A DNA stretch of 64,000 bases from an uncultured Chlamydiae bacterium (GTDB lineage: Bacteria > Chlamydiota > Chlamydiia > Chlamydiales > Parachlamydiaceae). A program made the translations under genes and the position numbers. The DNA is taken from contig CAVWGN010000001.1 in the NCBI GenBank assembly GCA_963754655.1, positions 2,560,001-2,624,000 of the forward strand, in the 5' to 3' direction. Under the pieces are notes generated by a model that saw nothing but the letters and a program-made list of their open reading frames with translations, ran no database searches and was not told the DNA's origin. Shown one piece after another: positions 23,469 through 24,401 of the stretch (the stretch's first letter is position 1; the number at the start of each line of letters is the position of its first letter).

Positions 23469-24401
23469 ATGGAATTTTATATGAATACGGAAATTTCAAA
23501 TAATTATACTCAACAATTAATTACCTCGTCTTTGGATGATGTGAAAACAAAATCTGTGAAACAGTCCTCGAAAAAAAAATGGACAGATGCTGAAAATATT
23601 CAATTGAGCAATTATATAAAAGAATATGGAAAGAACTGGAAGAGAATTGCAGAGAAGATACCTGGTACAACTCATCAGCAATGTGCTTATCATTGGAAAG
23701 TTGCATTGAACTCTGAAATTAAGCATGGAGAGTGGTCGCAAGAGGAAGACGAGAAATTGAAACAACTTGTAGAGCAAGGGGGAGAAAGATGGTCAGAGAT
23801 AGCCAAACAGATTCCGGGTAGGACTAATCAGCAATGTAGGAAGCACTACCATGCGCGTTTAAATCCATTTATCAAACATGGAAAATGGACAAAAGAGGAA
23901 GATGATCAATTAAAACAAGTCGTTCAACGCCTCGGACAGGATAAATGGGATCTCATTGCAAAGGAATTGTCTAATAAAACAAATCAACAATGTGCAAATC
24001 GTTGGCAAGTATTATATCCAAAATATAATAAGCAGCGCCCTAGAAGTGAAACAAATTCTCCTATTGAAGAAAGGCCTTCAAAAAAATTTAAAAAAAATCA
24101 TTCTTCTGACGTATCGGATTTGAATGAAAATAGAATTGCTTTAAATCCGAATTCTACAGAATTAGATCAGCCCCAACCCCAGCTTCCACCTCAACCGATT
24201 TTATTAAATGAACCTATTCCTAAACAATTAGAGCAACAACCTCAAGATATCCGTGTTTTGGATTCTATTTTTCAACAATCGTTGACCTGTCATAACGAGC
24301 TCTTTACTTTTGAATCGTACCCCTCTTTTACGAATCAGGATTTGACTTTTGAAGAATTAGACAAAAATCTTTCGTTTTCTTGGATAGATGATCTTAACTA
24401 A
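23469..24401 (+). CDS. eukaryote-like three-repeat Myb/SANT DNA-binding protein
   Basis: Three ~51-aa repeats with regularly spaced Trp (KWTDAEN..NW..QCAYHW; GEWSQEED..RW..QCRKHY; GKWTKEED..KW..QCANRW); basic cluster; P/Q-rich and acidic tail. Confidence 0.9.
   Translation: MEFYMNTEISNNYTQQLITSSLDDVKTKSVKQSSKKKWTDAENIQLSNYIKEYGKNWKRIAEKIPGTTHQQCAYHWKVALNSEIKHGEWSQEEDEKLKQLVEQGGERWSEIAKQIPGRTNQQCRKHYHARLNPFIKHGKWTKEEDDQLKQVVQRLGQDKWDLIAKELSNKTNQQCANRWQVLYPKYNKQRPRSETNSPIEERPSKKFKKNHSSDVSDLNENRIALNPNSTELDQPQPQLPPQPILLNEPIPKQLEQQPQDIRVLDSIFQQSLTCHNELFTFESYPSFTNQDLTFEELDKNLSFSWIDDLN

Follow-up and report, generated by a model that had tools for sequence, protein, structure and literature searches.

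Introduction

The TAL (transcription activator-like) effectors of Xanthomonas and Ralstonia combine an N-terminal secretion region, tandem DNA-binding repeats, a nuclear localization signal (NLS) and an acidic C-terminus; their repeats are 33-35 residues long with a two-residue RVD (repeat-variable diresidue), and paralogs vary in repeat number. Here we describe a gene for a Myb-repeat protein from an uncultured bacterium of the Parachlamydiaceae (phylum Chlamydiota; assembly GCA_963754655.1), which lies at 23481..24401 (+) within a 64,000-nucleotide stretch of contig CAVWGN010000001.1 (positions 2,560,001 to 2,624,000), referred to below as the window. Its product belongs to a family of 14 paralogs that was not met in any other genome searched; these paralogs resemble TAL effectors in the order of their parts, in varying repeat number, in differences at base-facing positions and in forming a multigene family per genome. 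Unlike TAL effectors, the repeat is a 51-52-residue Myb unit with five variable positions in place of an RVD and without any sequence kinship, and no one-repeat-one-base code is known for it. To our minds, the best explanation - and a reasonably probable one - is that the genome encodes a lineage-specific family of about 14 modular, secreted, nucleus-targeted DNA-binding effectors with a TALE-like layout made of Myb repeats.

Lineage-specific expansions of eukaryotic-like families, namely F-box, BTB and LRR proteins aimed at ubiquitination, are described for the Parachlamydiaceae in the accessible part of Domman et al. 2014 (PMC4209131). The Myb family resembles these in being a lineage-specific expansion of a eukaryotic domain in an amoeba-associated chlamydia, and it adjoins LRR and BTB genes; it differs in its domain type, which is predicted to be DNA-binding, and in carrying an NLS-like motif, and 'Myb' occurs nowhere in the accessible text of that paper. 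Myb-like transcription factors are listed among the eukaryotic-like genes, taken as acquired from eukaryotes, of Clostridia endosymbionts of termite-gut protists in a study which, in its accessible part, also names Legionella and Chlamydiota as groups with such eukaryotic-like proteins (PMC10579323); family architecture, repeat arrays, an NLS and contact-residue variation are not described in that part. Open-access papers and preprints gave no description of a Myb-repeat family in Chlamydiae or of a Myb-domain nucleomodulin: hits for 'MYB' together with chlamydial genera were confined to culture medium or reference-list entries, and a 2021 nucleomodulin review (PMC7819608) has Myb only in a cited title. 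Environmental chlamydiae are known for large eukaryotic-like families aimed at host ubiquitination; a DNA-binding family of transcription-factor type has not been reported in searchable papers. With its NLS-like motif and acidic tail, such a family would mean that a bacterium living inside protists directly mimics transcription factors, and its architecture, together with variation focused on base-contact positions, would surprise specialists.

Results and Discussion

Three Myb repeats of eukaryotic type

The window protein is a member of the Myb/SANT superfamily, as its hidden Markov model (HMM) score, the spacing of its aromatic residues and its three-helix fold all indicate. Pfam places three stretches of PF00249 (Myb_DNA-binding) on it at E 5.4e-44, with 148.5 bits six-fold above the 24.4-bit cut-off, and PF13921 follows at E 1.8e-43, so that the HMMER comparison suggested in the original prediction came out positive for both families. 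In total, seven Pfam families match at E <= 0.01, all inside the repeat region (residues 84-182) and six of them Myb/SANT-type. A phmmer search of the PDB yields 40 distinct sequences at E <= 0.001, the best being c-Myb R1R2R3 (1h88_C; 6.9e-31) and the next SNAPC4 (3.6e-30); Foldseek also ranks 1h88_C first (40% identity over 149 columns), its top matches being Myb domains, and the nearest Atlas clusters are all eukaryotic Myb families. In the AlphaFold2 (single-sequence) model, residues 31-180 form three three-helix units with predicted local distance difference test (pLDDT) values of 66-93 per 10-residue block, while residues 1-30 and 185-255 fall below 50 and are predicted to be disordered; a helix is predicted at residues 255-274. 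Thus, the three tandem repeats of the original prediction are borne out by Pfam, PDB search, AlphaFold2 and Foldseek alike. As for a superhelix of repeats wrapping around DNA, we draw no inference since the relative placement of repeats is unreliable at the predicted template modelling scores obtained (0.26 for the window protein; 0.24, with mean pLDDT 60.7, for residues 1-300 of a 5-repeat paralog).

Delimited by Pfam and a family HMM, the repeats occupy 23577..23732 (repeat 1, 'first' type), 23730..23885 (repeat 2, 'middle' type) and 23883..24041 (repeat 3, 'last' type, carrying one inserted residue between helices 1 and 2), all on the forward strand. The aromatic core of these ~52-residue units reads W-W-W, W-W-Y and W-W-W, and Tyr as third aromatic, as in repeat 2, recurs in one SNAPC4 repeat of the PDB search alignment. 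Some of the motifs first read from the sequence needed correction. A WT.EED start applies to repeat 3 (WTKEED), while repeats 1 and 2 open with WTDAEN and WSQEED; QC is present in all three recognition helices and is followed as described by HW in repeat 1 and RW in repeat 3, repeat 2 having HY instead. Both linkers (LNSEIKHG, LNPFIKHG) are there.

In the length of its repeats, their spaced aromatics, c-Myb-like linkers and three helices, the protein is like eukaryotic three-repeat (3R) and multi-repeat Mybs (c-Myb, plant MYB3R, SNAPC4/SNAP190). Judged by colinearity, contact residues and flanking regions, however, it is not an animal or plant 3R-MYB. Window repeats 2-3 pair best with c-Myb R1-R2 (79.7 bits) rather than with R2-R3 (41 bits), QC is found in all three window repeats but not in c-Myb R3, and the gene is bacterial and intronless with no c-Myb C-terminal family in its Pfam list. 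Moreover, none of the seven aligned base-contact residues of c-Myb is identical in the window protein, one being a Lys-to-Arg change; the target would therefore not be the canonical c-Myb site. Of the complete layout of a eukaryotic activator claimed originally, the repeats, NLS-like motif and acidic tail are present, but the protein does not follow animal R1R2R3 colinearly. SNAPC4/SNAP190, with four and a half repeats in ~1,470 residues (PDB chains of 1,469 and 1,519) and SNAPc-binding regions, differs from the window protein, which has three repeats in 306 residues and whose likeness is confined to them.

A family of 14 paralogs with a common plan

PF00249 has 82 matches in the genome of origin. 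Counted with an HMM that took the repeats of the window protein as its seed, 82 repeat units with a period of 51-52 residues are distributed over 14 open reading frames (ORFs) with 14, 9, 9, 8, 8, 6, 6, 5, 3, 3, 3, 3, 3 and 2 units, and intact frames reach 825 residues. The members share a plan: an N-terminus of ~30 residues, conserved and rich in S and N, leads into a 'first' repeat, 'middle' repeats that vary in number and a 'last' repeat, after which come a KKFK linker and an acidic, P/Q-rich tail. With three repeats, the window gene is the smallest version, to which paralogs add between 1 and 11 full 'middle' repeats. A maximum-likelihood tree built from 79 repeats gathers 13 'first' repeats in one clade (support 100/100) and 12 'last' repeats in another (100/99), the only 'last' repeat outside it being a middle-type repeat exposed by an insertion element; the 'last' repeat of the window protein is sister to that of the paralog at 2.47 Mb (C1:2466266; 99/91). 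From these separate clades it follows that the first-middle-last plan predates the gene duplications, with arrays growing by amplification of middle repeats.

The regions outside the repeats are equally characteristic. The N-terminal 32 residues (23481..23576, +) are rich in S, T and N, are predicted to be disordered and have no hydrophobic signal peptide; their start motif is conserved, with M1, N2 and S6 invariant in nine aligned paralogs, and we regard them as a candidate type III secretion signal. Behind the repeats, within the linker predicted to be disordered, KKFKK (24081..24095, +) resembles a monopartite NLS: K-K-F-K is invariant in the nine aligned paralogs, and among the 12 paralogs with a tail, 11 have KKFK and one KKIK. 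The tail itself (24096..24398, +) is acidic and P/Q-rich (17 D/E, 4 K/R and 21 P/Q in the last 98 residues) and closes with a conserved hydrophobic-acidic motif in its last 10 residues (24369-24398). Blocks of the tail and the terminal motif can be aligned between paralogs; in protein searches the tail matches only paralogs from the same genome, and the N-terminus is likewise specific to this family. The S/T/N-rich N-terminus, the basic stretch ending in KKFKK, the P/Q-rich stretch and the acidic-aromatic end described originally are thus all present, and conservation of the KKFK motif and the acidic tail among paralogs argues that both are functional.

Eight of the Myb ORFs are clustered at C1:1,211,906-1,228,922, three lie at 1,355,286-1,360,209 and single genes at 1.63 Mb, 2.47 Mb and in the window. 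The eight ORFs of the 17-kb tandem cluster (C1:1211906-1228922) are on one strand and hold 13, 8, 8, 9, 6, 3, 2 and 9 PF00249 stretches; the cluster is flanked by genes for YidC, a protein with a RhoGEF domain, a kinase fused to an FGE-sulfatase domain and an outer membrane protein of Protochlamydia type. One Myb gene (C1:1223640-1226685) is split into an N-terminal part of 191 and a C-terminal part of 212 residues by an insert encoding a serine resolvase and an OrfB_IS605/TnpB-like protein. Elsewhere, a 78-residue ORF (C1:2447083-2447319, -) keeps part of a middle-type repeat and is probably the remnant of another member.

Middle repeats vary at base-contact columns

The variation analysis covered a core-family set of 50 middle repeats aligned over 52 columns, with nucleotide identities of 81% on average and 98% at most. 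Column entropy is low in helices 1-2 and peaks in helix 3. The accessible part of PMC3203581 gives Lys128, Glu132, Lys182 and Asn183, plus Asn136, Asn179, Asn186 and Ser187, as the base-reading residues of c-Myb; the residue letters of the PDB chain agree with these names, the numbering offset being deduced by us. Transferred through the PDB search alignment, the contact residues fall on repeat columns 34, 37, 38, 41 and 42, which rank 1, 3, 5, 8 and 2 of 52 by entropy. With these five columns fixed beforehand, the proportion of nonsynonymous differences (pN) is 0.473 as against 0.123 for the other 47 - a value that only 2 of 20,000 random five-column sets reached - and the nonsynonymous-to-synonymous rate ratio (dN/dS) is 0.95 as against 0.34. 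The 50 middle repeats display 47 distinct five-residue combinations at these positions. With a scaffold dN/dS of 0.33, and of 0.08 at buried helix-3 positions, the comparison indicates that the scaffold is under purifying selection. It thus appears that the scaffold is conserved and the DNA-facing side either free or driven to change. Contact columns are also the more variable ones in 'first' (mean entropy 1.95 versus 0.47 elsewhere) and 'last' repeats (0.99 versus 0.49). A dN/dS of 1.23 obtained for a set of seven columns was set aside as circular, since these had partly been picked after seeing the entropies; neither column set shows dN/dS above 1. Helix 3 has a mean net charge of +1.56, as compared with -2.14 for helices 1-2.

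Because middle repeats differ almost only where bases would be contacted, each paralog probably reads its own host DNA sequence. If specificity does reside in the variable helix-3 positions, the family would offer a natural collection for studying how tandem Myb repeats read DNA and a parallel to TAL effectors which arose from a eukaryotic domain.

A model for host-directed action, and what speaks against it

We propose that these features work in sequence. The disordered S/T/N-rich N-terminus, conserved in the family and free of a Sec signal, would direct type III secretion; KKFK, placed in the disordered linker behind the repeats, would be read by host importins and take the protein to the nucleus; the three Myb repeats would bind DNA through their basic third helices; and the acidic P/Q-rich tail with its terminal hydrophobic-acidic motif may recruit host factors, as an activator or otherwise. 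Consistent with such a role is the accessory, host-interaction-type profile of the family, i.e. its near-absence in the same genus, its rarity in the phylum and the variable lysS-cysS interval in which the window gene lies (see below).

Several observations weigh against this model. Type III signals lack a consensus; KKFK is short and could serve another role; the likeness of the tail to activation domains is compositional only. A dN/dS near 1 at contact columns could reflect relaxed constraint no less than diversifying selection, and the repeats might no longer read bases at all. In addition, truncation or the entry of an insertion element has affected several paralogs, showing that the family is partly decaying, and codon usage of the family correlates with that of the genome at r 0.77, less well than in most random gene sets (mean 0.96, minimum 0.58), which the repetitive make-up of the genes may explain.

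In a different view, the proteins do reach the host nucleus but are not sequence-specific activators. They might be decoys of or competitors for host Mybs, bind chromatin, telomeres or repeats, or mimic SNAPC4, with the tail serving another partner. The close scores of SNAPC4 and c-Myb and the SNAPC4-like Tyr in repeat 2 would suit this, as would the loss of all seven aligned c-Myb contact residues; arrays of up to 13 repeats are unlike ordinary activators, and a dN/dS of ~1 at contact columns needs no base reading. SANT-type histone binders, however, are described as lacking a basic third helix, unlike the net basic helix 3 of the window family; Pfam families specific to SNAPC4 or telomere proteins were not found at E <= 0.01, and a conserved acidic tail with a terminal hydrophobic-acidic motif is a feature of activators. 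On balance we regard this alternative as unlikely, albeit one that deserves to be taken seriously.

At the other extreme, the effector model could be taken further to envisage a second, independently evolved system of programmable DNA-reading effectors in bacteria. Each middle repeat would then read a few base pairs via its five helix-3 positions, arrays of up to 13 repeats between constant first and last repeats would address long, specific host sites, and NLS and acidic tail would turn such binding into altered transcription in the amoebal host. The 47 contact combinations might then allow a 'Myb code' to be deciphered; attractive as it may be, such a scenario seems rather doubtful to us.

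Distribution, origin and a possible role inside the bacterium

PF00249 is matched at E <= 0.001 in 10 of 40 other genomes of the same genus, family or order (1-9 matches per genome); for the three from the same genus, the repeat counts are 1, 1 and 0. Across the phylum, where counts are lower bounds since no more than 17 candidates per genome were scored, 16 of 400 other genomes match at E <= 1e-5, one with at least 11 matches and another with at least 7. A chlamydial genome of the same family (G209; C3:75030-81617 and C1:1113903-1114526) has at least 11 Myb matches, including five adjacent ORFs of 236-281 residues that may be a separate, smaller expansion. Since none of the Myb proteins at six loci in other chlamydial genomes has the N-terminus, KKFK context or tail of the family, they were kept out of the family set. 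A related-locus search of genome contigs retained a single relative among 113 pattern matches, from the Chlamydiales bacterium 38-26 metagenome-assembled genome (41% identity).

Of the 29,373 proteins that an exhaustive search collected at E <= 0.001, 399 reached E <= 1e-30; after the genome's own paralogs, metagenome proteins are the best matches. Three of the 20 top representative matches are organism-named, all of them eukaryotes: Quaeritorhiza and Paraphysoderma (zoosporic fungi) and Bremia (oomycete). Named relatives as a whole comprise chytrids, a blastoclad, an oomycete and plants (34-43% identity), plant MYB3R proteins having 37-43% identity in a word-indexed search, and no amoebal protein is among them. 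The protein had been called host-derived; the domain is very likely of eukaryotic origin, but the findings speak neither for nor against the present host as its donor. Metagenome proteins with multi-repeat Myb arrays (35-46% identity) show that arrays as such are not unique to this genome, and in those inspected by eye, differences between repeats also appear to fall near the QC motif. Two public proteins, P0018 (688 residues) and P0019 (465 residues), come from 15-25-kb contigs; their 8-9 tandem Myb repeats follow an N-terminus that is hydrophobic and resembles a signal peptide, so other bacteria may export Myb arrays by a different route.

Might the family act within the bacterium instead, as nucleoid-associated proteins or regulators on the bacterial chromosome? 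PF00249 also finds matches in Bacillus subtilis, which served in the control set. The match in question, though, is to a eukaryotic family at E 5e-44, with no GcrA- or phage-type helix-turn-helix family among the Pfam matches of the window protein at E <= 0.01. As the Myb family is missing from same-genus genomes, core regulation is argued against; an invariant NLS-like motif and an acidic tail are of no obvious bacterial use, and the neighbours of the window gene are eukaryotic-like LRR, PPR and BTB genes. We therefore rate an intrabacterial role as improbable.

Constraint argues against a functionless relic

A more sceptical proposal sees the family as recently acquired and amplified eukaryotic DNA without function, kept by duplication and gene conversion. 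Truncated or insertion sequence (IS)-split members and the 78-residue fragment could be taken this way, as could middle repeats of up to 98% nucleotide identity and contact columns with a dN/dS of ~1. Such a view is hard to reconcile with the constraint on scaffold and buried helix-3 positions (0.33 and 0.08) or with frames intact up to 825 residues; promoter/Shine-Dalgarno (SD) region, N-terminus, KKFK and tail are kept even in a subfamily of 38-41% identity, and GC and GC3 are genome-like. Accordingly, lack of function strikes us as very improbable, and the preferred reading as host-directed effectors retains its place.

A genuine bacterial gene in a variable interval

The Myb gene is a genuine bacterial gene and no contamination. 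It sits between rimO-lysS and cysS on a contig of 3,123,268 bp without N, from an assembly of two contigs (96.7% complete, 1.8% contamination), and housekeeping genes in the window comprise those for NuoD, MutS, PriA, RimO, LysS, CysS, UvrA, MiaA, FabF and glycogen enzymes. Its GC of 0.350 and GC3 of 0.289 are within ~1.3 standard deviations of the long ORFs of the genome (0.397 +/- 0.037 and 0.332 +/- 0.059). The lysS-cysS context, an SD-like element and genome-like GC confirm an intronless bacterial gene for a eukaryote-type Myb protein, as had been predicted. While the domain is otherwise almost wholly eukaryotic, eukaryotic contamination or a chimeric assembly can be dismissed as exceedingly improbable, given a gene without introns and with an SD-like element that lies inside the lysS-cysS interval of a 3.12 Mb contig free of N, copies at six chromosomal places, genome-like GC and the low contamination estimate.

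The interval between lysS and cysS (23024..32865) accommodates, besides the Myb gene, an LRR, a PPR and two BTB genes. Synteny of RimO-LysS and CysS extends to the three same-genus genomes, at 78-89% amino-acid identity, yet the LysS-CysS gap of 9.8 kb compares with about 3.0, 1.9 and 7.3 kb there. By tblastn (E <= 1e-5), none of the five island genes (Myb, LRR, PPR and both BTB genes) was found in these three gaps, where a RecQ helicase and ORFs lacking any Pfam family are encountered instead. Conserved synteny combined with differing gene content places the Myb gene in a strain-variable island of eukaryotic-like genes. Being wholly different in four genomes of one genus, the interval looks like a hot spot of accessory genes.

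Three paralogous LRR proteins are encoded at 24720-25919 (-), 15526-16668 (-) and 16846-17988 (-), with LRRs matching plant resistance-protein families; the first adjoins the Myb gene, and by eye its N-terminal part resembles an F-box. A 610-residue protein (26974-28806, -) has nine PPR_2 stretches (PF13041, E 1e-89), pentatricopeptide repeats being typical of eukaryotic organellar RNA-binding proteins. Two tandem BTB/POZ paralogs (29875-30972, - and 31272-32372, -) and a eukaryotic-like ankyrin-repeat protein (59149-60468, +) are likewise found amid housekeeping genes. With respect to secretion, the genome encodes SctV, an SctJ-like protein and two secretins as type III parts, and a genome search found no VirD4-type coupling protein. 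The sole YscJ/FliF-family (SctJ-like) match is on the 35-kb second contig (C2:15286-15837) and not on the chromosome. The Protochlamydia-type outer membrane protein family PF17251 also occurs in the genome, in keeping with an environmental chlamydia.

Start site and control signals

The ORF at 23469..24401 (+), read originally as 310 residues, is real, intact and uninterrupted, but its start is more likely at 23481, which yields 306 residues plus stop rather than the 310 of a start at 23469. Paralogs open at MN... behind a purine-rich, SD-like element, and the public gene call (P0001, 100% identity to the window protein) also has 306 residues. In the window this element is a weak SD-like TGGA (23470..23473, +), 7 nucleotides ahead of the ATG at 23481; an alignment shows a purine-rich element at the same place before the MN... 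start in 13 of 13 paralog upstream regions. Further upstream, the TTGACA noted originally is present (23423-23428) and could, on weak evidence and by reading, belong to a sigma-70-type promoter with a 17-nucleotide spacer and TAAAAC (23423..23451, +). A promoter consensus scan did not list this pair, as its second hexamer is without the final T, and promoter-like sites around the Myb gene were not above chance in that scan (7 seen, 6.7 expected by shuffling). A look-up of sequencing runs for 23300-24500, as a source of expression evidence, came back empty. The upstream regions of the paralogs can nonetheless be aligned with each other, suggesting that promoters were copied together with the genes.

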